Program-made: the position numbers and the translations under genes | Source: a virus | Taxonomy: Duplodnaviria > Caudoviricetes | Length of the DNA: 64,000 nucleotides | Strand: one strand, 5' to 3' | Virus record (IMG/VR): IMGVR_UViG_3300034374_009547 | In this document: in pieces, positions 8,594 to 52,224 of the stretch | Position numbering within the stretch: the stretch's first letter is position 1 | Layout of the letters: each line of letters begins with the position of its first letter | The notes under the pieces: generated by a model | What the model saw: the letters and a program-made list of their open reading frames with translations, nothing else | Databases searched by the model: none | Told to the model about the DNA's origin: nothing

Positions 8594-9277
8594 ATGAATA
8601 CTAGAACAATGACCAGTGCTTACTATGACGAAGCACTGAGAACTTTTATGCTTGCACTATATAACTACACTGCAATTGGTTTGGCAATTACAGGTTTAGT
8701 TGCATATCTAACTTATGCAAGTGGATTAATGTACGCAATGGGTCCACTAATGTGGGTAGCAGTGTTTGCTCCACTTGGTATGATCCTATACTATAGTTTT
8801 GCTGGACAAAACTGGAGTTTTGAAACTACAAGAACTTTCTACTATGTGTTTACAGCAGTAATGGGCATTAGTATGAGCACAATCTTTGCTGTATATACAG
8901 CAATCAGTATTGCTCAAGTGTTCTTTATTACAGCAGCAACATTTGCTAGTGCTAGTTTGTATGGTTATACTACCAAAAAAGACCTAAGCGGTTGGGGTAG
9001 TTTTTTACTAGTTGGATTGATTGGTATTATCATTGCAAGCATTGTTAATATCTTTTTGCAAAGCAGTGCTCTTGAATTTGCAGTAAGTGTGATTGGGGTG
9101 TTGATTTTTACAGGTCTTACAGCATACGATACACAACATGCTAAAAGTATGTTTGTAAGTGGACGTATGAACGCAAAAGAAACAGCCAAATTTGCTATTC
9201 AAATGGCACTGAGCTTGTATCTAAACTTTATCAATCTATTCCAAATGTTGCTGAGTTTACTCGGCAATAGAGAATGA
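8594..9277 (+). CDS. Bax inhibitor-1 / YccA family membrane protein
   Basis: About 7 hydrophobic segments; YGYTTKKDLSGWG, GLTAYDTQ and ALSLYLNFINLF motifs of the BI-1/YccA family. Confidence 0.85.
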   Translation: MNTRTMTSAYYDEALRTFMLALYNYTAIGLAITGLVAYLTYASGLMYAMGPLMWVAVFAPLGMILYYSFAGQNWSFETTRTFYYVFTAVMGISMSTIFAVYTAISIAQVFFITAATFASASLYGYTTKKDLSGWGSFLLVGLIGIIIASIVNIFLQSSALEFAVSVIGVLIFTGLTAYDTQHAKSMFVSGRMNAKETAKFAIQMALSLYLNFINLFQMLLSLLGNRE

Positions 9278-9888
9278 TTCTTTGTGACGTAGAATTTGAA
9301 CTACCAAAAGGCCCTGTCGGTGTGTTGTGCAGCGGCGGGGCTGATAGTTCATTAATCCTTTATTTGTTAATGAAACATAGTAATCAACCATTACATGTCC
9401 TTACAATGGCAAATAGAAAAAAACATTTTACTAATGCTATAGTTGTAAGTAAAGTAATAGATTGGTGTATGAAAAAAACAAACAATAATAATATTGTACA
9501 TACCGTAAAATACGTCGATGAGCAAACAGACGAGCAATTACAACAACTAACAATTCAACATCTAAAAGTATTCCGTACAATTTACATTGGTGATACTTGT
9601 TATCCACCAGAAGATATACATGATGAATTTGTACAAAATACAGGCGATAGTTTTAATAAACTAGAAGATAGAAAACCAAATAAAAATCGTGCAACAAAAG
9701 CAGGGCCAATATATGTTCCATTTACAAATTATAACAAAAGAAAAATAGCCGAAATATACGAACATCTTGATATTATGGAACTTGCAGATATTACTCGCAG
9801 TTGCGAAACATTTGAAGATATTGGTACAAAACATTGTGGTAACTGCTGGTGGTGCAAAGAAAGAGAATGGGCTTTTGATAAACGGTAA
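9274..9888 (+). CDS. queC: QueC-like PP-loop ATPase (7-cyano-7-deazaguanine synthase-like)
   Basis: VLCSGGADSS PP-loop and TRSCE...HCGNCWWCKER zinc motif; short and divergent. Confidence 0.6.
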   Translation: MILCDVEFELPKGPVGVLCSGGADSSLILYLLMKHSNQPLHVLTMANRKKHFTNAIVVSKVIDWCMKKTNNNNIVHTVKYVDEQTDEQLQQLTIQHLKVFRTIYIGDTCYPPEDIHDEFVQNTGDSFNKLEDRKPNKNRATKAGPIYVPFTNYNKRKIAEIYEHLDIMELADITRSCETFEDIGTKHCGNCWWCKEREWAFDKR

Positions 9889-14111: not shown

Positions 14112-14493
14112 TTGGAAAAAACCAACAGCACAAATGCTTGGGCGGTGGCAACCTTGGCATGATGGGCATACAGAATTATTCAAAAAAGCCTTGACAAATA
14201 CTGGTCAAGTTTGTATAATGATAAGAGATGTTTGCGGTGTTGATGCAGGCATGGGGAACAATGATAATCCTTTTAACTATAGAGTAGCAAGGAAAAATAT
14301 CATAGACGGGCTTGCTAAACACGGTTACACTTGCGGTGAAGAATATGAAATAATAAGTGTTCCTAATATTGTTGATATTAGTTACGGAAGAAGTGTTGGA
14401 TATACTTTTACACAACACAACTTAGGGGAAGAAATACACAATATTAGTGCCACAAAGATTAGAGCAAAAATGAGAGAGAAAGGCGAACTATGA
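14104..14493 (+). CDS. HxGH-class nucleotidyltransferase (cytidylyltransferase/NMNAT-like)
   Basis: [10 protein letters not shown] and ISATKIR motifs. Confidence 0.8.
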
Positions 14494-39060: not shown

Positions 39061-39803
39061 TTATAGCAGGTCACGGATTTGTAGGTAAAGCATATGAATG
39101 GTTGTTTGCTAACTATAGAAGAAAAATAGAAATACATGATCCTGCAAAAGGGTTTACAGCTGACTTTGATAATACAAGTGCAGTAATTATTTGTGTACCA
39201 ACACCGCAAGCAGATGACGGCTCTTGTGATATGAGTGCAGTTTATGATGTAGTAGGCAAGTGTAGACCAGATACACCAATAATGATCAAAAGTACAATTA
39301 GTTTGCAAGGATGGTATGAACTTAAAGACCGCTTTCCAAATCATAAATTTTGTTTTAGCCCAGAGTTTTTAAGAGCAGCAAATCACATGATTGATATTAA
39401 AAATATGGATACCTTTATTATTAGTGGTGATACAGAATACTGGCGTGATCAAATTAGTTACAACTGGCCACATATGCGTATACGCACCGTAAAACCTGAA
39501 GAAGCTATAGCAATAAAATATTTTAGAAATGCTTTTTTAGCAACTAAAGTTAGTTTTTTCAATGAAATATATGACTTTTGTTCAGCATACGATATCAGCT
39601 TTGATCAAGTTCAAGGCGGTATTATAGCAGATAAAAGAATAGGAGAAAGTCATAGTTACGTATGGCCAGATGAAGGGGTAAGAGGTTGGGGAGGATATTG
39701 TTTTCCAAAAGACACCAGTGCTCTATTAAAAATGGCAGCAGAAAAAAATATTAATCTAAATACACTAGAAGCAGCAGTTGAATACAATAAAAAAATACGT
39801 TGA
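39057..39803 (+). CDS. UDP-glucose/GDP-mannose 6-dehydrogenase-like protein lacking the C-terminal domain
   Basis: GHGFVG, CVPTP, IKST, SPEFLR, K...NAFLA.KVSF.NE and GGYCFPKD motifs. Confidence 0.85.
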   Translation: MIIAGHGFVGKAYEWLFANYRRKIEIHDPAKGFTADFDNTSAVIICVPTPQADDGSCDMSAVYDVVGKCRPDTPIMIKSTISLQGWYELKDRFPNHKFCFSPEFLRAANHMIDIKNMDTFIISGDTEYWRDQISYNWPHMRIRTVKPEEAIAIKYFRNAFLATKVSFFNEIYDFCSAYDISFDQVQGGIIADKRIGESHSYVWPDEGVRGWGGYCFPKDTSALLKMAAEKNINLNTLEAAVEYNKKIR

Positions 39804-39828
39804 CAATCAACAACTTAGGCAGTATAAT
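39800..39828 (+). promoter_or_regulatory. Consensus sigma70 promoter TTGACA-N17-TATAAT
   Basis: Perfect consensus; heads the clamp-dpdA block. Confidence 0.8.
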
Positions 39829-39848: not shown

Positions 39849-40580
39849 ATGAAAGACATTCTACAAGACATTGTAAGCCATACACATTCGTTAGGCATTA
39901 TTTCAACACTTAAAATTACAACAGAAAATGATATCACAACTATTGAAAGTATGGCAGACGATAGAAGTGTTATTATGACAGCAACAACACATTCACCAGT
40001 AGGCGAATTTGTAGGTACATTTGGTATGCCTGATTTAGGTAAACTAGCTTATCATTTAAAAAATCCAATGTACAGAGAAAATGCTAAAATTGAAGTAATA
40101 AGTGCAGAACGCAACGGTGAAGTTGTTCCAACACATATTCACTTTGAAAACGATACAGGTGACTTTAAAAACGATTATCGTTTTATGATTAAAGAAATTA
40201 TCGAAGAAAAAATTAAAAAGTTTAGTTTTAAAGTTAATACATATGATGTAGAAATCCAGCCAAGAATTGGTAAAATTGAACAAATGAAATACATGCAAGG
40301 CGGACACACAGAAGAAACGGTGTTCCAAGTTAAAACTGAAAATGATAACTTGGTATTTTATTTTGGTGATGATGTAACACACGCAGGTAACTTTGTATTT
40401 GAGCAAGGTATTACTGGAAAACTAACACATACATGGGCATGGCCTGTTTCACAAACTATTGCTATTTTGAACTTGGATGGTGATAAAACTATGAGCATCA
40501 CAGACCAAGGTGCTATGAAGATTAGTGTAGACAGCGGCATGGCAAAATACGATTACATTCTACCGGCTCAACAAAAATAA
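39849..40580 (+). CDS. Putative sliding clamp (gp45/PCNA-like)
   Basis: 243 aa, alternating beta/alpha, C-terminal YDYILPA resembling the PCNA terminus; PolB and clamp loader are in the window. Confidence 0.55.
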   Translation: MKDILQDIVSHTHSLGIISTLKITTENDITTIESMADDRSVIMTATTHSPVGEFVGTFGMPDLGKLAYHLKNPMYRENAKIEVISAERNGEVVPTHIHFENDTGDFKNDYRFMIKEIIEEKIKKFSFKVNTYDVEIQPRIGKIEQMKYMQGGHTEETVFQVKTENDNLVFYFGDDVTHAGNFVFEQGITGKLTHTWAWPVSQTIAILNLDGDKTMSITDQGAMKISVDSGMAKYDYILPAQQK

Positions 40581-42136
40581 TGAAAACAAACCTAACTGAA
40601 ACACAAAAAGATTATGCAGTATTTTTACCTAGTATTAGCGGCTTTTATGGCACGTTTGTAGGTAAACAAAGATATGAAGATTATGTTGATCCTTCTCGTG
40701 TTCCAGCAGGTTTAGGCAATGTAGAAAGTCTTAATTTTTTAAATCCTAAAGACGGAGCATTCCATTACAAGTGGGCGCTCTATTCTGCTGGTCACGCAGA
40801 TTTAGATACGACTAAATTTGTTGATAAAGAAGATATGGTGCGTAACCGTGATAGAGATAATTCATGGTTGCTAGGCGACTCAGGTGGTTTCCAAATTGCT
40901 AAAGGGTTGTGGCCCGGTGACTGGACTAGCGAAACTTGTCCACATGCAAATAAAAAACGTGAGCTTGTTGTAAACTGGATGGAAGAATACATGGACTACG
41001 GAATGATGCTTGATATTCCTACATGGACCTTCCAAAGTGCAAAAGCAAGTAAAGCAACTAACATAAAAAGTTATGATGATGCTGTAAAAGCTACTCATAT
41101 TAATGCACGTTATTACATGAAACATAGACGTGGTAACTTTAAGGTATTAAACGTACTACAAGGCAGTAATCATACTAATGCCGATAGTTGGTATGAAGAA
41201 TTCAAAGGTTATTGTGATCCAAAACAATATCCAGATACACACTTTAATGGCTGGGCAATGGGTGGTCAAAACATGTGTGATGTTCATTTGATTTTACGCA
41301 GACTTGTACACATGATACACGATGGATTACTTGAACAAGGGCTGCATGATGTAATGCACTTCTTGGGCACAAGTAAACTAGAATGGGCTGTGTTACTTAC
41401 TGACATACAACGAGCTGTTCGCAAATATCATAATCCTAACTTTATGATTACATATGATTGTGCATCTCCTTTTCTTGCAACAGCAAACGGTCAAATTTAT
41501 CATAACATTAGATTAGATCACAAAGGCAAATGGAGTTATATTATGAGTCCAGGTGCTGACGCTTTGAAATATGCTAGTGATACTAGAAGTTTTATAGACG
41601 CAGTACTACAAGATGGCTTATTACCTACATTTGAAGAATCTCCTGTTAGTCAACACTGCAAAATGAATGATATTTGCATTTATGCTCCAGGCGATAAAAA
41701 CAAAGTTGGTACTATTAAAGTTGAAAAAGGTAAGCCAGAACTTGATAAACAAGGTAATCCTTTACTAGACGATAACGGAAATCCAATTATTATGCGTAAA
41801 GATAGCACAAGTTGGGATTCATTTAGTTATGCGCTACAAATGGGTCATAATGTTTGGATGCATATTGAAAGTACACAACGTGCAAACGAGCGTTATGATG
41901 CAGGAGAATATCCTTACATGATGGTATACGAACCAAGTATTAGACATGTGTTTAGAGATATTGTCAATGAAATCTTTGCACAAAAAGATCGTGAAAAAAG
42001 TCTTGCAGTTATTAACAAATATGGTGACGATAAATCGCTAAGTATTTGGACACACATTATTGGTACTAGATTGAAAGTTGGTAAGAAAACAATAACACCG
42101 GAAGCAAAAGCAGACGAATTATTTGATTGGGGTTGA
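40580..42136 (+). CDS. dpdA: TGT-fold guanine transglycosylase (DpdA-like, DNA 7-deazaguanine insertion)
   Basis: LGDSGGFQ, MMLDIP, VLQG, GWAMGG, MHFLG and YDCASP motifs of the TGT superfamily; linked to folE/queE/queD-like genes. Confidence 0.75.
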   Translation: MKTNLTETQKDYAVFLPSISGFYGTFVGKQRYEDYVDPSRVPAGLGNVESLNFLNPKDGAFHYKWALYSAGHADLDTTKFVDKEDMVRNRDRDNSWLLGDSGGFQIAKGLWPGDWTSETCPHANKKRELVVNWMEEYMDYGMMLDIPTWTFQSAKASKATNIKSYDDAVKATHINARYYMKHRRGNFKVLNVLQGSNHTNADSWYEEFKGYCDPKQYPDTHFNGWAMGGQNMCDVHLILRRLVHMIHDGLLEQGLHDVMHFLGTSKLEWAVLLTDIQRAVRKYHNPNFMITYDCASPFLATANGQIYHNIRLDHKGKWSYIMSPGADALKYASDTRSFIDAVLQDGLLPTFEESPVSQHCKMNDICIYAPGDKNKVGTIKVEKGKPELDKQGNPLLDDNGNPIIMRKDSTSWDSFSYALQMGHNVWMHIESTQRANERYDAGEYPYMMVYEPSIRHVFRDIVNEIFAQKDREKSLAVINKYGDDKSLSIWTHIIGTRLKVGKKTITPEAKADELFDWG

Positions 42137-45937: not shown

Positions 45938-46277
45938 TCACAACAACGATACTATTACAATTACAACTGATGATTTGGATAAATCAGGCGTAACAATTCA
46001 AGGTCATTATTATGGAAATACTATTGATATAGGCACTATATCAACAAGCACACTTGAATACAATGGAATTGATGATTTAGTTTCGCTTGATGATTTTTCG
46101 ATTACACTAAATGATCCTGTTGAGTTTGAAGATCGTATGCCCGATGTTGCCAAGATAGAAGACATGTGCAATGATTATCCAGCACTAGCAAAAGCATATG
46201 AAAATTTTAAAACTATGTATGCTATGGTGCATCAAGACTGGAAAGGTCGACAAGAGGATGACCCACTTCCATTTTAA
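45930..46277 (+). CDS. Hypothetical protein
   Basis: GTG start; YPAL.KAYE.FK..Y motif. Confidence 0.6.
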   Translation: MRDHNNDTITITTDDLDKSGVTIQGHYYGNTIDIGTISTSTLEYNGIDDLVSLDDFSITLNDPVEFEDRMPDVAKIEDMCNDYPALAKAYENFKTMYAMVHQDWKGRQEDDPLPF

Positions 46278-46758
46278 CATAGAACCTGTATGGAATATGG
46301 AACGCTATCGTGCGTTAGACTATAAACTAGACCATCATAAAGATACAAATTTAATACAAAAATATTTAGATGCAGGGCATAGTGCAGAGGCTATGACCCT
46401 GTATAACTATTTTGAACCAAATCCTATGCCACCAAGTATAGAATATATTTGCAGTTATTTTCCTACACTTAAAAACATTTCAATTGCAGTCAACCTATTT
46501 AAGCCAGGACAATATTTGCCTGTACATACAGATCTATATGGTGCATATAAAAAATATCATGGTTTGACAAACGAAACAATTTATAGATATATTGTTATGC
46601 TAGAAGATGGTGTAGAAGGACAAATGTCTGTAATTGGAAACAGAGTTTACACCATGTGGAAAGCAGGACAAATATACGGCTGGCAAGATGATGAAAAACA
46701 CACATTTTATAACTTGAGTACAAAGGATAGATATGCAGTCCAAATTACAGGCACATAA
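46258..46758 (+). CDS. 2OG-Fe(II) oxygenase / cupin-like protein
   Basis: PGQYLPVHTD (HxD), R.IVML, G...W...H distal His; GAGG RBS before ATG 46258. Confidence 0.65.
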   Translation: MTHFHFNIEPVWNMERYRALDYKLDHHKDTNLIQKYLDAGHSAEAMTLYNYFEPNPMPPSIEYICSYFPTLKNISIAVNLFKPGQYLPVHTDLYGAYKKYHGLTNETIYRYIVMLEDGVEGQMSVIGNRVYTMWKAGQIYGWQDDEKHTFYNLSTKDRYAVQITGT

Positions 46759-48022
46759 CCGATACGACCAAGTTTTAGAAAAACTTTTCATTATATCAAT
46801 TAACAACAATACCAAGTTTGTAGATAAAGAATACAACTTATTACAAAGTATTGACCATGCTGTAGGTATACATCAAGTTTATACTCACGGATATTTAAAA
46901 ACTTTTAAAAAAAATTATATTGTAATACACGATATGGGAACTATAGACTATATTGAAAATTATTTTTTGAATAGTTATGAACGCAAATCATGTAACAATA
47001 AAGGTTTGTACATTTTTTTAACGGAACAAATATTACACACACATATTCCAGAACAAAAAATAATGTTAGATGGTGATAGCAATTTACCTAATATTTCTAT
47101 AGATTGGCAACAATCACAACACGATAAAATTTGGTCTCCTGAATTATCAAGTATTAATGAATTTGTAAAAAATAATCAATTAACAAATGTTTTTGTTTGT
47201 ATTAGTGCAGAAGATAAACATGGAATTTATGCGGGCAAATATAATTTTAACATACTTCGTAATGACGCTTATGTAAACGCAATAGCAACTTTTTTAGACA
47301 AAAATAAATCTCCAACCCAATTTTTTTCTAGTGATAAAATAGATACACATTTTTGGTGTGGTAATTGGGGATATAGACCGCACAGACACATTGTTACTGC
47401 TTTTGCTAGTAGCTTAGACACCTTGTATAGTTGGGGATATACAGATAGTAAACTTAATTTAGCAAATCATCTATGGTTTGATCCTAAAAAATTTAAGTAC
47501 AAAAAAGAATTACTACAATCGCTAAAACAATTACAACCAAACTCAATTGACATAGATACAGGGCAAACTGAAATCACAGGCACATTATTTGATGTAATGC
47601 TTAGACCCGAGTCTGAATACGAAGGTCCTGATTTAAAAAATTATTCAAGTAAAGAATTATTTTCAAATACATTTTGCAGTATTATTAACAGCAGTACATT
47701 TGGTGAACCATTTGCAGTATATGACGAAAAACCTTTAAATGCTATTATAAATTTTAGACCATTTATACTAGTTGGTCCAGCAGGCAGTTTAGAATTAATG
47801 AAAAAGGACGGTTTTAAAACATTTAGTGATTTTTGGAACGAAAGTTACGACAACGAATATAACCATCAAACAAGATTAGAAAAAATATTTGATTTGCTAT
47901 TAGAAATTGACTCTTGGAGTATTGAAAAATGTAAGCAAATGCACAAAGATATGTATAATATATTAATTCATAATTACAACAGAATAGGTAAAGATTTACA
48001 TGAAATGCGCAGCACTTTATAA
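46733..48022 (+). CDS. Glycosyltransferase-like protein (GT-B, GT10/exostosin-like C-terminal motif)
   Basis: DEKP..AI...RPFILVG...L..DGFKTF..FW.ESYD...R motif; very AT-rich. Confidence 0.5.
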   Translation: MQSKLQAHNRYDQVLEKLFIISINNNTKFVDKEYNLLQSIDHAVGIHQVYTHGYLKTFKKNYIVIHDMGTIDYIENYFLNSYERKSCNNKGLYIFLTEQILHTHIPEQKIMLDGDSNLPNISIDWQQSQHDKIWSPELSSINEFVKNNQLTNVFVCISAEDKHGIYAGKYNFNILRNDAYVNAIATFLDKNKSPTQFFSSDKIDTHFWCGNWGYRPHRHIVTAFASSLDTLYSWGYTDSKLNLANHLWFDPKKFKYKKELLQSLKQLQPNSIDIDTGQTEITGTLFDVMLRPESEYEGPDLKNYSSKELFSNTFCSIINSSTFGEPFAVYDEKPLNAIINFRPFILVGPAGSLELMKKDGFKTFSDFWNESYDNEYNHQTRLEKIFDLLLEIDSWSIEKCKQMHKDMYNILIHNYNRIGKDLHEMRSTL

Positions 48023-48926
48023 TCATACAAATATACGTGGTGGTAATCGTGTGTATCCTTGTTGTCGTTACAAGGAAAGTGTAATGCACTTTGATGGCAA
48101 TGTTGGTAAAATTATGCATAGTTATATGTATAATAAATTACGTGCAGATATGGAAGATGATTGGTTGCCGGGCTGTGGTAAATGCAAACACGAAGAAGAA
48201 CTAGGGGTAGAAAGTTTAAGACAACGGTTTAATTCTCGTTATCAAATGAGCAAACCTACACTGGATTATTTGGAAGTAGGGTTTGATAACATATGTGATT
48301 TAACTTGTGATGGTTGCTGGGAGGAATGGAGCAGCAGCTGGTGGGCTAAAAAGAATCCCGACCTGCCACACAAACAGGGAATTACCAGCACAGAAGAATT
48401 TACACATATACCCAACACTATAAATCGTGTGGTGTTTTTAGGTGGCGAACCACTTATGACAAATAGACACAGACGTTTTTTACAAACATTTGACAATTTA
48501 GAAAATCTATCTGTGGAATATTTTACAAATGGTATGCACAAATTACAAGAAGAAGATTACCAAGTTTTAAGCAAATGCAAACATGTACACTTTACAATCA
48601 GCATAGACGGTATAGGTGTTTTGAATGAACAGGTGCGTAGCGGTAGTGTTTGGAGCAGAGTGGTCAAAACATTAGATGAAATAGCAGATGTATTTGATTA
48701 TACAATACACAGCGTAGTGCATAAAAATAATTGGCACGGTTTACCAGAACTTGCAGAGTTTGCAAAAAAATATAAAAAATGGACAACAAATGTCTTGACA
48801 TTTCCTAAAGAACTGGATATAATAACACTAGAGCAGTGTGACAAAGCAAAACTAGAAAAAATATTGGATACATATGATATACCAAACAGGCAATATATTA
48901 AGGCACACTTACAAGGAGAAGCATGA
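48000..48926 (+). CDS. Radical SAM protein with N-terminal twitch/SPASM-like Cys cluster
   Basis: C...PCC...CGKC N-terminus; NICDLTCDGC; GGEPL; TNG; SIDG. Confidence 0.85.
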   Translation: MKCAALYNHTNIRGGNRVYPCCRYKESVMHFDGNVGKIMHSYMYNKLRADMEDDWLPGCGKCKHEEELGVESLRQRFNSRYQMSKPTLDYLEVGFDNICDLTCDGCWEEWSSSWWAKKNPDLPHKQGITSTEEFTHIPNTINRVVFLGGEPLMTNRHRRFLQTFDNLENLSVEYFTNGMHKLQEEDYQVLSKCKHVHFTISIDGIGVLNEQVRSGSVWSRVVKTLDEIADVFDYTIHSVVHKNNWHGLPELAEFAKKYKKWTTNVLTFPKELDIITLEQCDKAKLEKILDTYDIPNRQYIKAHLQGEA

Positions 48927-49537
48927 TGGACATGCGCAGTTATGAAAATTGGAGAGAACACGGTGCTGATGAAAGTAGTGTAGAAGAAGTAACTTGGAAT
49001 AATAACGATTTGCTTACACTACCTTGGGAAGCAACATATATGACAGACGAGATTCCAGAAGATAGTTCATGGGATACGTTTGCTACAAAAAATAAAAAAG
49101 CACTAGAAGCCATGTACAAACAATGGGGAGTACCTAAAGAAGGTAGTCTACATTATATGAGTATACGTCCAGAACTAACAAAAGGACTTGCTACACTTAT
49201 TGCTCCGTATGCACATATGAAGTTCAATTACAACTTCCTAAAACTAACACCAGGGTGTAGTTTAATGTGGCACTTTGATACATATGCTACATTTGTAAAG
49301 TTCAATAATATCGATGAAGCAGATGCACATCATGTTTGTAGGACCGTTGTGATGATGGATGACTGGGATAGAGGTCAAGTACTACAAGTAGGTGACGAAG
49401 TTTACACAGGCTGGAGTGCAGGAGATACATATACTTGGAAGGGTGATACTTGGCACGGTATGGCTAATTTTGGTCCTACTAATATTGTTATTGCTCAAAT
49501 AACATTCCTGGATGAAGATGACAAATATTCCCAATGA
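48923..49537 (+). CDS. 2OG-Fe(II) oxygenase / cupin-like protein
   Basis: PGCSLMWHFD (HxD), GQV...W..G..Y.W....WHG distal His. Confidence 0.65.
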   Translation: MMDMRSYENWREHGADESSVEEVTWNNNDLLTLPWEATYMTDEIPEDSSWDTFATKNKKALEAMYKQWGVPKEGSLHYMSIRPELTKGLATLIAPYAHMKFNYNFLKLTPGCSLMWHFDTYATFVKFNNIDEADAHHVCRTVVMMDDWDRGQVLQVGDEVYTGWSAGDTYTWKGDTWHGMANFGPTNIVIAQITFLDEDDKYSQ

Positions 49538-50420
49538 TAAGCGTGATATGGATTTTGGCAGTGCTTTTGCTATACAAGATCCAGAAACAATGCGTTTATT
49601 AAGAAAACATTATAACTTTATTGATCTCAATAATGACAGCATTATTGATGAATTTCTGCATGAATACGATACTTGGATTAAATCAGGTACACTAAATGTG
49701 TTTACTGGATTAGAAGATTTTGGTTACAAATGTTATAGTAATGGTACTACAGAAGCATTTGATAAATTTTATATGCGCAATGCTAAACGTAGATTCCGAT
49801 GCTATAAAGGCGAATATATGTATCATAGATTAGCGTGGAGAGACAAGTTTGTTTGGGCATATATTGAAGACGAACCGCTTCACAATGCAGATGCAGTAGT
49901 TATTAGTTTACCATTTGCGGATACAGGTGACAAACACGACAAGTATCACGATCTAATGCGTGAATGTAGTGAACTAGGAATACCAGTATTAGTAGATTGT
50001 GCATATTACGGTGCTTGTAGGCATATACACATAGACTTAGCGTATCCTTGTATTACAGACGTTACGTTTAGTTTGAGCAAAACATTTCCAGTTGCTTACG
50101 CCCGTATAGGTATGCGATATACTAAAGTAGATGACGACGATACAATGTTTGTGTATCACAAAATAAACTACAATAACAAAATAGGTGCATTACTTGGTTT
50201 AGAATATTTTGACAACTTTTCACCCGATTACATACCAAACAAATATATTGACAAACAAGCAGATTTCTGTAATACTATAGGAGTTAGTATTAGTAAAACC
50301 GTGCTATTTGGTATTGATTACAATAATAAGTTTCCGCAATACAACAGAGGCGGACGTACAAATAGACTGAGTTTTCATAAACAATATATTAAAGGATTAG
50401 ATATTGCCGGTACAAAGTAA
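49512..50420 (+). CDS. PLP-dependent fold-type-I enzyme (aminotransferase class I/II-like)
   Basis: NGTTEAF, VLVDCAY (Asp contacting PLP), FSLSKTF (Schiff-base Lys), RIG. Confidence 0.75.
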   Translation: MKMTNIPNDKRDMDFGSAFAIQDPETMRLLRKHYNFIDLNNDSIIDEFLHEYDTWIKSGTLNVFTGLEDFGYKCYSNGTTEAFDKFYMRNAKRRFRCYKGEYMYHRLAWRDKFVWAYIEDEPLHNADAVVISLPFADTGDKHDKYHDLMRECSELGIPVLVDCAYYGACRHIHIDLAYPCITDVTFSLSKTFPVAYARIGMRYTKVDDDDTMFVYHKINYNNKIGALLGLEYFDNFSPDYIPNKYIDKQADFCNTIGVSISKTVLFGIDYNNKFPQYNRGGRTNRLSFHKQYIKGLDIAGTK

Positions 50421-51462
50421 TAACGATTGGGATCCATTAGAAGAGATTATTATCGGCACAGCAGACAATTGTGTGCATCCTACTATGAATATTAGTACAC
50501 ATAGTTTTATATATGGTGGTGAACAATATGAAGATATCAAACACTTTAACGGGCAACCTATTGAACAATGGATTGTCGATGAAGCAAACGAAGATTTAGA
50601 TGGGTTAGAAAAGTGCTTAAAAGATTTAGGTGTTAAAACTAGACGTCCAAAAAGCATCGATCATAACCAAAAGTTTAGCACACCAGAATGGACTACTACA
50701 GGATGGTATACTTTCTGTCCAAGAGATTTGTTGTTGCCTTTAGACAATATGATTGTAGAATGTCCTAGCCCAATGCGAGCAAGATATTTTGAAACTAGAG
50801 CATACTATGACCATTTATATGAATGGATGAAAGAAGGTACACAATGGATTTGTGCGCCTAAACCTATTTTAACTGATGATAACTATCAATTGGAGGACCG
50901 TAGTGAAGCAACCCTTGTTAACAAAGAAATTATTTTTGATGCTCCTAATATCGTTCGTCTTGGTAGGGATCTTCTCTGCCAAGTTAGCAATAGTGGCAAC
51001 CAACTTGGTTTTGAATGGTTACGTACTATTTTAGAGCCAAAAGGCTATCGTATCCACGTAGCAGAAAAATATTATAGTTTTGCACACTTTGATAGCACCG
51101 TATTGCCACTGCGGCCTGGACTAGTGTTGTTTAATGCAGGACGCCTAAGCGAGGATTGGTATCCACCTATTTTTAAAGACTGGGACAAGATTTGGGTAGG
51201 TGAAGAAGATCTACACGTTCCGCCAGCAAACACAGGTGTTGCTCCTTGCTCACCTTATATTGGATTAAACTTTTTGAGTGTTAATCCAGAACTTGTTATT
51301 GTTGATGAAAAGCAAGAAGCACTTAGACGTATACTAGGCAAACATGGTATTGATACAATAGGCCTTCCAATGCGTCAAGCACGTAGCATGAGCGGAGGGT
51401 TTCATTGTGCTACACTAGACACTAAGCGCAAAGGCAGTTTGGAGGATTATTTTGCAACATAG
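50404..51462 (+). CDS. L-arginine:amine amidinotransferase (AGAT / StrB1-like)
   Basis: NDWDPLEEIIIG, CPRD, R.FE, FDA, HFDST, N.LS and GGFHCAT with catalytic Cys. Confidence 0.9.
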   Translation: MPVQSNNDWDPLEEIIIGTADNCVHPTMNISTHSFIYGGEQYEDIKHFNGQPIEQWIVDEANEDLDGLEKCLKDLGVKTRRPKSIDHNQKFSTPEWTTTGWYTFCPRDLLLPLDNMIVECPSPMRARYFETRAYYDHLYEWMKEGTQWICAPKPILTDDNYQLEDRSEATLVNKEIIFDAPNIVRLGRDLLCQVSNSGNQLGFEWLRTILEPKGYRIHVAEKYYSFAHFDSTVLPLRPGLVLFNAGRLSEDWYPPIFKDWDKIWVGEEDLHVPPANTGVAPCSPYIGLNFLSVNPELVIVDEKQEALRRILGKHGIDTIGLPMRQARSMSGGFHCATLDTKRKGSLEDYFAT

Positions 51463-51673
51463 TATAGAACAATGGATTGAACGTATAAATGCAATGAAAG
51501 ATATGTGTATTCAAGCACATAGATTGCGTAATCAATACAGCGAACAAGTTGAAGAAACATACAACTATGCACAAGTAAAAGATATACTAGAGCAAGTGCA
51601 ATCAATGGCCGCCGGTATTGCAAATGAAAAAATAACCGAAATTAAAACAGAAATGGATGAATGGAAAAAATGA
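51452..51673 (+). CDS. Hypothetical protein
   Basis: GGAGG RBS plus TTG start. Confidence 0.55.
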   Translation: MQHSIEQWIERINAMKDMCIQAHRLRNQYSEQVEETYNYAQVKDILEQVQSMAAGIANEKITEIKTEMDEWKK

Positions 51674-52224
51674 AACGCAAACATTATACTTGGGACGATG
51701 TACATAAATGTGCTCACAAACTAGCACTGGAAATGTACAAAACTGGATTCAAACCAGATTATATTGTAGGACTCAACAGAGGCGGTCTGCCTATCAGTGT
51801 TGTGTTAAGCCATTTATTAGACTGCGACCATTATGCGCTAGATGTACGGTTACGTGATAACAAAGGAGAAACTGGACCTGAATCTAACTGCTGGATGGCA
51901 GAAGATGCGTTTGGGTATGTATCTCAAATTGATAGAGATGATGTTTGGAGTAAATCTACTAGCGATACTGCTAAGAAAAAGAAAATTTTAATTGTAGATG
52001 ATATCAACGATACTGGTGCTACATTTAAATGGATTAAAGAAGATTGGCAAGCAGGTTGTTTACCAGATAGTCCAAACTGGGATACCATTTGGAATCAAAA
52101 TGTTCGCTTTGCTGTAATGTGTGAAAAAACACATACCGAGTTTGATGGGGTTGACTATGTATGGCAAACCATAGATACAGGTGAAGAAGATACATGGATT
52201 GTGTTTCCATGGGAATATGATTAA
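51661..52224 (+). CDS. Type I phosphoribosyltransferase (xanthine/guanine PRT-like)
   Basis: VGLNRGG, ILIVDDINDTGAT PRPP-binding loop, WIVFPWE. Confidence 0.88.
   Translation: MEKMKRKHYTWDDVHKCAHKLALEMYKTGFKPDYIVGLNRGGLPISVVLSHLLDCDHYALDVRLRDNKGETGPESNCWMAEDAFGYVSQIDRDDVWSKSTSDTAKKKKILIVDDINDTGATFKWIKEDWQAGCLPDSPNWDTIWNQNVRFAVMCEKTHTEFDGVDYVWQTIDTGEEDTWIVFPWEYD

Follow-up and report, generated by a model that had tools for sequence, protein, structure and literature searches.

We analyzed a 64,000-nucleotide (nt) stretch of tailed-phage DNA (Duplodnaviria; Caudoviricetes; IMG/VR virus record IMGVR_UViG_3300034374_009547), hereafter the window, which is a section of a 113.7-kb IMG/VR contig with an estimated completeness of 32% and comes from an uncultured aquatic giant phage. 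At positions 49512-51462, two overlapping genes encode a pyridoxal 5′-phosphate (PLP) enzyme, A, and an L-arginine-type amidinotransferase, B, and two oxidative enzymes are encoded directly upstream. Our preferred reading, which we hold at roughly even confidence, is that these genes make up a mobile, phage-specific four-enzyme cassette (N-twitch radical S-adenosylmethionine (SAM) enzyme, 2-oxoglutarate (2OG)-oxygenase-fold protein, A and B) that puts a guanidino group on a small sugar-, sugar-phosphate- or cyclitol-like scaffold.

The interval 49512-51462 contains exactly two plus-strand open reading frames (ORFs), A and B, overlapping by 17 nt; the minus strand across it holds only ORFs of up to 86 aa. 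All four cassette genes overlap or abut. Their positions and diagnostic motifs are given below, with the supporting evidence in brackets.

48000-48926, plus strand: N-twitch radical SAM enzyme, 308 aa, first core gene of the cassette (NCBIfam NF033640, Pfam Radical_SAM)
48294-48317, plus strand: CxxxCxxC motif of the radical SAM enzyme, aa 99-106
48923-49537, plus strand: 2OG-Fe(II)-oxygenase-fold (double-stranded beta-helix) protein, 204 aa (HxD...H triad H117/D119/H178, AlphaFold2 (AF2) model, VIA structural ranking)
49512-50420, plus strand: A, compact fold-type I PLP enzyme of the class I/II aminotransferase kind, 302 aa (AF2 model, Foldseek, VIA, family alignment)
49995-50006, plus strand: DCAY of A, aa 162-165, a DxAY motif with D162
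50070-50081, plus strand: SLSK motif of A, aa 187-190, with the Schiff-base lysine K190
50404-51462, plus strand: B, L-arginine-type amidinotransferase, 352 aa (StrB1-like architecture, PDB homology, motifs)
50716-50727, plus strand: CPRD motif of B, aa 105-108
50935-50949, plus strand: FDAPN motif of B, with D179
51085-51099, plus strand: HFDST motif of B, aa 228-232
51394-51408, plus strand: GGFHC motif of B, aa 331-335, with the nucleophile C335

B is an intact amidinotransferase of the StrB1 type

Homology and motif content, both far beyond chance, identify B as a predicted full-length, intact L-arginine amidinotransferase of the AGAT/StrB1 family (pentein superfamily). A phmmer search of PDB sequences matched StrB1 (1bwd, E 1.5e-86, residues 4-349), HsvA (5wpi, E 2.6e-64), SxtG (6u1r, E 2.1e-59) and human AGAT (1jdw, E 1.5e-55), with the matches running end to end over about residues 2-350. 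B and StrB1 are collinear over ~346 residues and differ by only four indels of 1-3 residues, which indicates a StrB1-type architecture for B. Translation starts at a TTG codon with AAAGGA 7 nt upstream.

A first-pass annotation of this DNA, made from the letters alone, had described an intact catalytic set (CPRD, HFDST and a terminal GGFHC) in an amidinotransferase paired with a PLP enzyme. All three motifs are located in B, with GGFHC lying 17 residues before the C-terminus, and the pairing also stands: A lies upstream of B, and its PLP fold and residues were confirmed as described below. Residues D108, R127, H228, D230, H334 and C335 are invariant among 36 aligned relatives of B, a set that takes in paralogs 25-30% identical to it (including B2, below) and proteins of Campylobacter phage CP220 and Synechococcus phage S-SCSM2R. 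At position 179, the residue is Asp in 29/36 sequences, Glu in 6/36 and His in one, the paralog B2; R237 is Arg in 33/36. We take C335/H228/D179 to be the counterpart of the AGAT triad C407/H303/D254. The residues that bind the guanidino and carboxylate groups of the arginine donor (the Asp of CPRD, the Asp of HxD and the Arg of RPG) are present as well.

B had no Pfam or NCBIfam match at E 0.01, PF02274 included, and its only PHROGs match was one unnamed PHROG. Because the recorded match of the CP220 homolog to PF02274 is likewise marginal (0.0045), the missed match probably reflects insensitivity of the model for B's branch, not gene decay. Relatives are plentiful, 2,385 in number. Longer fused forms of B were also sought, and the search gave three distant proteins only, none of them from the phage clade described below. 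Two of the three, metagenomic proteins of 713-720 aa (P0392 and P0393), carry an amidinotransferase domain 37-40% identical to B fused to a class II aminoacyl-tRNA-synthetase core (PF00152).

The phage also encodes, outside the window, a second amidinotransferase, B2 (332 aa), which is a very divergent paralog with 25% identity to B. B2 retains CPRD, H-x-D and GGLHC, carries His at the position of the triad Asp and has few relatives among cultured phages; the gene after it encodes an HxD...H oxygenase-like protein of 239 aa.

G000:C1:14635-16336 (L002:795-2496), minus strand: B2, paralog of B, and the oxygenase-like protein

A is a compact fold-type I PLP enzyme

A starts with ATG and overlaps the oxygenase gene by 26 nt, and nothing was matched to it in Pfam, NCBIfam, PHROGs or a phmmer search of PDB sequences. 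Structure prediction now establishes it as a fold-type I PLP enzyme. Its AF2 model (pLDDT 95.1, pTM 0.93) gave Foldseek probabilities of 1.0 to HisC, CobD and class I aminotransferases (AspAT), and VIA aligned 272-296 of its residues with class I/II fold-type I PLP enzymes at Z 20-22. The ranking is flat, mixing aminotransferases, C-S lyases, a decarboxylase and O2-dependent arginine oxidases, with RohP, MppP, MppQ, Plu4 and GntC among the tied top matches. Because of this flatness, the modeled structure settles the fold and does not discriminate between a transaminase and a decarboxylase, lyase or oxidase.

The PLP site is well conserved in an alignment of 83 relatives, where K190 is invariant and G139, D162, S187, S189 and R198 are at least 90% conserved. 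G139, D162, S187, K190 and R198 presumably correspond to Gly197, Asp222, Ser255, Lys258 and Arg266 of AspAT, and R198 lies 8 residues after K190, at the position of the PLP-phosphate Arg. The Asn of the NPTG-type loop is replaced in A (PFADTG), with the Gly kept. Two C-terminal arginines, R279 and R285, are conserved or invariant, suggesting a candidate site for a substrate carboxylate or phosphate.

At the family level, 38/83 relatives match Pfam Aminotran_1_2 (best E 1.8e-09; the A of the window does not), and the family profile matches aminotransferase 3if2 across the PLP motifs at E 5.7e-4. An exhaustive search returned 483 cluster representatives of about 290-310 aa, and relatives number more than 1,200 at 90% clustering. 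We detected no sequence-level similarity between A and the PLP enzymes of the cyclic guanidino amino-acid pathways.

Two oxidative enzymes complete the cassette

The radical SAM gene scores 172.5 bits against the NCBIfam model NF033640 N_Twi_rSAM (cut-off 170) and 2e-09 against Pfam Radical_SAM, and most related loci have a homolog of this gene no more than 5 kb from B. Its stop codon overlaps the start of the oxygenase gene (ATGA). In the 204-aa oxygenase-fold protein, the triad residues H117, D119 and H178, together with K107, R140, N182 and Q192, are invariant among 26 sequences. Its AF2 model (pLDDT 87) was matched by VIA to proline 3-hydroxylase (Z 11.0), P4H (10.7), AspH (10.2), PasI (9.8) and HygX/AviO1 (8.7), and part of its Atlas neighbors carry PF05118. 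The first Foldseek matches had suggested a cupin-type sugar isomerase or ketoisomerase; we rejected this assignment on the basis of the HxD...H triad and the exhaustive structural ranking, both of which point to the 2OG-oxygenase fold.

A host-type promoter precedes the oxygenase gene

A perfect promoter sequence lies ~100 nt ahead of the oxygenase gene.

48795-48823, plus strand: sigma70-type promoter TTGACA-17-TATAAT, 12/12 consensus match, inside the 3′ end of the radical SAM gene

Across 12 diverged copies of this promoter, one of them from a non-jumbo context, TTGACAT and GATATAATAA are invariant while adjacent codons vary. The plus strand of the window holds three perfect TTGACA-17-TATAAT sites (14191-14219, 39800-39828 and 48795-48823) against ~0.06 expected by our own base-composition estimate; in this part of its genome, the source phage seems to depend on strong promoters of the host type. 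Occurrences of the T4 late-promoter motif TATAAATA fall short of expectation (2 against 9.3); the motif is absent ahead of the cassette, where no late, virion-type expression signal was seen. Judging from these sequences, the promoter at 48795-48823 probably drives the oxygenase-A-B trio as a separately transcribed unit. With this conserved sigma70-type promoter of its own, the trio is probably transcribed by the host RNA polymerase early in infection.

A and B are coupled in phages and the cassette is mobile

To examine the arrangement beyond the window, we surveyed 60 IMG/VR loci, plus several metagenome contigs, with a relative of B. A lies directly upstream of B in 55/55 informative loci, and in 50 of 57 loci the stop of A and the start of B overlap by 4-23 nt. 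Most loci also have the radical SAM and oxygenase genes alongside the pair.

Metagenomic gene calls further include fusions of an A-type domain with cassette-type radical SAM domains in both orders (P0189, P0214 and P0212), with a PhyH-type dioxygenase (P0187) and with a methyltransferase (P0179). As read from these predicted proteins, the fusions link A with an oxidative partner that works on a common substrate, and they fit an order in which oxidation precedes transamination.

In a maximum-likelihood tree, every A-linked B falls in one phage clade (SH-aLRT 95) that is separate from the 79 bacterial homologs. Copies of B adjacent to 7-deazaguanine (que) genes form two subclades interleaved with copies from other contexts; since they are not monophyletic, the cassette is mobile, and it moves between unrelated T4-like and jumbo phages as a self-contained unit. 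In a further group of loci (L027-L032), B is 87-89% identical to that of the window and the upstream A only 34%, with the radical SAM gene downstream of the pair instead of upstream; this mismatch in identity points to recombination inside the cassette.

The nearest bacterial homologs of B are 38-45% identical to it. We looked for bacterial A only beside B homologs, and 79 of the 80 nearest have no A-type neighbor. The one exception is a 3.7-kb contig (L078, NZ_PXVC01000123.1) of the Synechococcus lacustris str. Tous assembly, which bears a phage-like array of A (30% identity), B (55%), cupins and an epimerase, and is either a hint at the host or phage DNA binned with the genome of this freshwater picocyanobacterium. 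Overall, A-B coupling looks like a phage arrangement.

Genomic neighborhoods of the cassette

The source is a T4-like jumbo phage, whose DNA polymerase shares 47-51% identity with the polymerases of Agrobacterium phage Atu_ph07 and Sinorhizobium phage Phosso. A megablast search with 12 kb against cultured phages gave no match, so none is close at the DNA level. In the window, PMM, UGDH, GT1 and an epimerase gene are found a short way upstream of the cassette, and a phosphoribosyltransferase (PRTase) gene follows B, succeeded by FolE and QueE. Two optional genes precede the radical SAM gene; both are missing from many loci of the jumbo lineage.

46198-46758, plus strand: second HxD...H cupin/oxygenase paralog, 186 aa, optional (alignment with the oxygenase family)
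46733-48022, plus strand: phage-only protein, 429 aa, optional (no family match)

The 186-aa paralog is 25% identical to the oxygenase family, keeps the triad and is 44% identical to S-SCSM2R ORF308, the gene that directly precedes the amidinotransferase of that phage.

Away from que genes, the company of the cassette changes. In unrelated phages, homologs of A and B have sugar and tail-fibre genes no more than 10 kb away. In one locus (L013), it sits between the tail-fibre adhesin gene gp38 and gp15/gp13, together with many radical SAM genes. Among 139 ORFs from 7 non-que contexts, a Pfam tally counted Radical_SAM 15 times, Asp_Arg_Hydrox 7, Mtd_N 4, Epimerase 3, UDPG_MGDP_dh 3 and DegT once, with no que family in its top 25. 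These contexts match the ‘host recognition cluster’ of pelagimyophages and cyanomyophages (PMC7029224).

Two phages with more distant amidinotransferases show comparable surroundings. The S-SCSM2R gene is neighbored by four glycosyltransferases and by radical SAM and oxygenase genes, and that of CP220 by radical SAMs, nucleotide-sugar transferases and small oxygenase-like proteins. In the Campylobacter phages CP220 and CPt10, the cluster of radical SAM and ‘glycine amidinotransferase’ genes has been described as an interchangeable module (Timms et al. 2010, PMC2853527). A second amidinotransferase and a prolyl dihydroxylase have been detected in preparations of purified S-SCSM2R virions, and the authors read the homologous genes as ‘antibiotic synthesis genes’ (PMC12801897).

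A proposed pathway and its alternatives

We favor a sugar or cyclitol scaffold because B is nearest to StrB1 and because sugar-nucleotide and transferase genes recur beside the cassette. In the pathway we envisage, the oxidative enzymes would make a carbonyl on the scaffold. From its fold and residues, A would convert this carbonyl to a primary amine by PLP transamination through a Schiff base at K190, with the amino-acid donor held by the conserved C-terminal arginines. B, acting by the mechanism of its family, would load the amidino group of L-arginine onto Cys335 with the help of His228 and Asp179, release ornithine and then hand the group to the new amine made by A; ping-pong chemistry through an S-amidino-cysteine intermediate, as in the StrB1 family, is most likely. 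The guanidino scaffold would feed the flanking glycan-building sets (uridine diphosphate (UDP)-sugar dehydrogenase, epimerase/dehydratase and glycosyltransferases) found in most phages. An amino sugar, which the first-pass annotation had named as one possible acceptor, is possible and fits these neighbors and the tail-fibre genes.

At the sequence level, this pathway is supported by the intact residues of A and B, the oxygenase triad and the radical SAM cluster motif, and by the coupling, the fusions and the mobility of the genes. Several points weigh against it. The acceptor and the enzymatic activities are predictions from sequence. A is of class I/II, the kind that usually handles amino or keto acids or HisC-type phospho-ketones, and aminotransferases for nucleoside diphosphate sugars are normally of the DegT/DnrJ/EryC1 kind. 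The flat ranking of the A model includes the arginine-processing enzymes RohP, MppP, Plu4 and GntC, and A could act after B. The modeled oxygenase has protein and amino-acid hydroxylases as its nearest folds. Neither the core cassette nor its conserved neighbors include a kinase or inositol gene. The 429-aa protein is at most a putative glycosyltransferase: it had no family match in Pfam, PHROGs or NCBIfam, and an Atlas lead to GT10 (0.79) was below threshold. Finally, a functional tie to the PRTase-FolE-QueE genes, specific to one lineage, is conceivable given that the cassette stays adjacent to them through considerable divergence (B identity down to 60%).

Some of the same observations would fit a guanidino amino-acid route, a serious rival that we nevertheless consider rather unlikely. 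Here, B would make an arginine analogue, the oxygenase would hydroxylate it and A would oxidize, eliminate or cyclize it; alternatively, residues of virion or tail-fibre proteins would be modified. Precedents for such chemistry are AmtA, which makes homoarginine, VioC/VioD, which lead to capreomycidine, and MppP/Q/R and GntC, which lead to enduracididine. The class of A and its tied top matches (RohP, MppP, MppQ, Plu4 and GntC) argue for this route. So do the prolyl and aspartyl hydroxylases that best match the oxygenase, the neighborhoods rich in Asp_Arg_Hydrox proteins and tail-fibre genes, and a weak similarity of the N-twitch enzyme to peptide-maturase radical SAM enzymes. However, in a flat ranking, the arginine-enzyme matches of A are indistinguishable from ordinary aminotransferases, and B is nearest to StrB1, whose acceptor is bulky and not an amino acid, rather than to AGAT or AmtA. 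No precursor peptide, nonribosomal peptide synthetase or ligase is conserved with the cassette. To our knowledge, known amidinotransferases act on free small molecules, which also counts against this route. The virion-associated second amidinotransferase and prolyl dihydroxylase of S-SCSM2R, on the other hand, would suit this route (PMC12801897).

We also think it unlikely that the end product is a free guanidino metabolite (a streptidine-like aminocyclitol, an amidinated polyamine or another polycation) that is not built into a glycan and serves charge neutralization, host or competitor inhibition, or osmotic balance in the infected cell or the capsid. The best solved relatives of B, StrB1 and HsvA, act on an aminocyclitol phosphate and a polyamine, respectively, and the core cassette is a self-contained mobile unit with an early-type promoter and no transferase of its own, all of which would fit a free product, as would the ‘antibiotic synthesis genes’ label given to the S-SCSM2R homologs (PMC12801897). 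However, the cassette is not accompanied by an inositol-phosphate synthase, a kinase or a polyamine gene, and its neighbors are instead glycan-building and tail-fibre genes.

Adjacency to 7-deazaguanine genes

The first-pass annotation, while correctly setting the chemistry of B (now assigned to the AGAT/StrB1 type) apart from the unrelated ArcS and Gat-QueC reactions, had proposed that B might act on a DNA base such as an aminomethyl-deazaguanine. The setting in the window invites this idea: the cassette lies in a replication and nucleotide module, right before the PRTase, FolE and QueE genes of its own lineage, and the early-type promoter of the trio resembles those of nucleotide-metabolism genes. 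Among the 46 loci with at least 5 kb downstream, FolE/QueE lie within 10 kb of A-B in 25, where the arrangement is kept down to 60% B identity. The same contig carries QueD and a QueC-like gene (9274-9888). In addition, a 518-aa protein (40580-42136), with homologs in PA5oct-type jumbo phages, has a weak tblastn link to a TGT-domain protein (E 2e-4).

The QueC-like PP-loop protein at 9274-9888 is short (204 aa) and is followed by another radical SAM gene, and the PRTase gene between B and FolE (51661-52224) is xanthine/HGPRT-like. In a near-complete relative of 345.8 kb (L010, 12160-15534), a SAM synthetase gene lies between B and the PRTase gene, and a flavodoxin gene between FolE and a QueE-like gene; both are radical SAM support genes and are missing at the matching position in the window.

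Other evidence separates the cassette from these genes. FolE/QueE are lacking in 21/46 loci, all 25 loci that have them carry markers of one jumbo-phage lineage, the que-adjacent copies are polyphyletic within the clade and the tally of non-que contexts is free of que families among its leading entries. QueF was not found above cut-off in the window contig (G000, 32% complete), in a 170-kb relative (G002, 48%) or in a 340-kb phage (G001, 91%) with a more distant, unpaired amidinotransferase, the records of the cassette's own lineage being fragments; with no QueF found, no source of the preQ1 amine is visible. With the Pfam TGT model, no DpdA was detected on the contig, and the 518-aa protein had no PDB sequence match. 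Phage 7-deazaguanine DNA modifications have been surveyed (Hutinet 2019; Cui 2023, PMC10516641); the surveys list no guanidino derivative and use ‘amidinotransferase’ for ArcS only, and the DNA of CP220 bears ADG, not a guanidino base (PMC10516641).

We conclude that the cassette is not part of the downstream 7-deazaguanine pathway and that the adjacency is peculiar to one lineage, with no conserved link. The evidence points away from a guanidino group on phage DNA, for example as an amidinated preQ1 or on a base-linked amine or amino sugar: we regard this outcome as very improbable in general. It is hardly more than a slim chance when confined to the jumbo lineage, where the product might be attached to the genome, either on a modified base in the form of a guanidino sugar or guanidino-alkyl group or on an amine-bearing deazaguanine. 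Were this so, it would be the first natural DNA modification known to carry a guanidinium group formed by arginine-dependent amidino transfer.

Comparison with known systems

Guanidino groups are rare outside arginine, few enzyme families make them, and phages are not known to do so. In aquatic phage metagenomes, this cassette is abundant. Knowing its product would bring to light a new cationic metabolite or surface decoration of phage origin and would help account for the large islands of radical SAM and oxygenase genes that marine myophages carry in their host-recognition regions. The enzyme families are known singly, and phage amidinotransferases have been annotated before (PMC2853527, PMC12801897). 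We found no published description of a cassette of radical SAM enzyme, oxygenase, compact PLP enzyme and amidinotransferase, of its internal promoter, of the phage-specific clade or of the domain fusions. The translational coupling of a shrunken class I/II PLP enzyme to a StrB1-like enzyme was not seen beside the nearest bacterial homologs.

B shares the Cys-His-Asp triad and the arginine-binding Asp/Arg residues with StrB1, the L-arginine:inosamine-phosphate amidinotransferase of Streptomyces griseus (1bwd), and with AGAT, HsvA and SxtG. It is ~40% identical to StrB1-type genes of Streptomyces (42% for L092; the figure is from Streptomyces loci), but belongs to a separate, phage-only clade, and the partner A is not found beside 79/80 of the nearest bacterial homologs. 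The streptidine branch, in which alcohol oxidation is followed by transamination by StsC, phosphorylation and the StrB1 reaction, has an oxidize-transaminate-amidinate logic in common with the cassette. The components differ: the oxidant there is an NAD dehydrogenase, whereas the cassette has a radical SAM enzyme and a 2OG-oxygenase-fold protein; the aminotransferase there is of the DegT/StsC type, whereas A is a shrunken class I/II enzyme; and the kinase and inositol genes are absent from the cassette.

The phage systems CP220/CPt10 and S-SCSM2R ORF305-309 likewise have amidinotransferases (30% and 36% identical to B, respectively) among radical SAM, oxygenase-like and sugar transferase genes. 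Unlike the cassette, the CP220 and S-SCSM2R clusters have no A-type PLP enzyme by tblastn, S-SCSM2R having a truncated DegT-type gene, and their amidinotransferases fall outside the A-linked clade. The cyclic guanidino amino-acid pathways resemble the cassette in applying an oxygenase and a PLP enzyme of the class I/II fold to a guanidino substrate, but they start from L-arginine and need no amidinotransferase, and VioC belongs to another oxygenase subfamily. Lastly, archaeosine (dG+) synthesis by ArcS or Gat-QueC also confers an amidine-type positive charge, and FolE, QueD, QueE and QueC-like genes are present on the contig; yet ArcS and Gat-QueC add ammonia to the preQ0 nitrile, whereas B is predicted to move the amidino group of arginine to an amine, and both the folds and the chemistry are unrelated.

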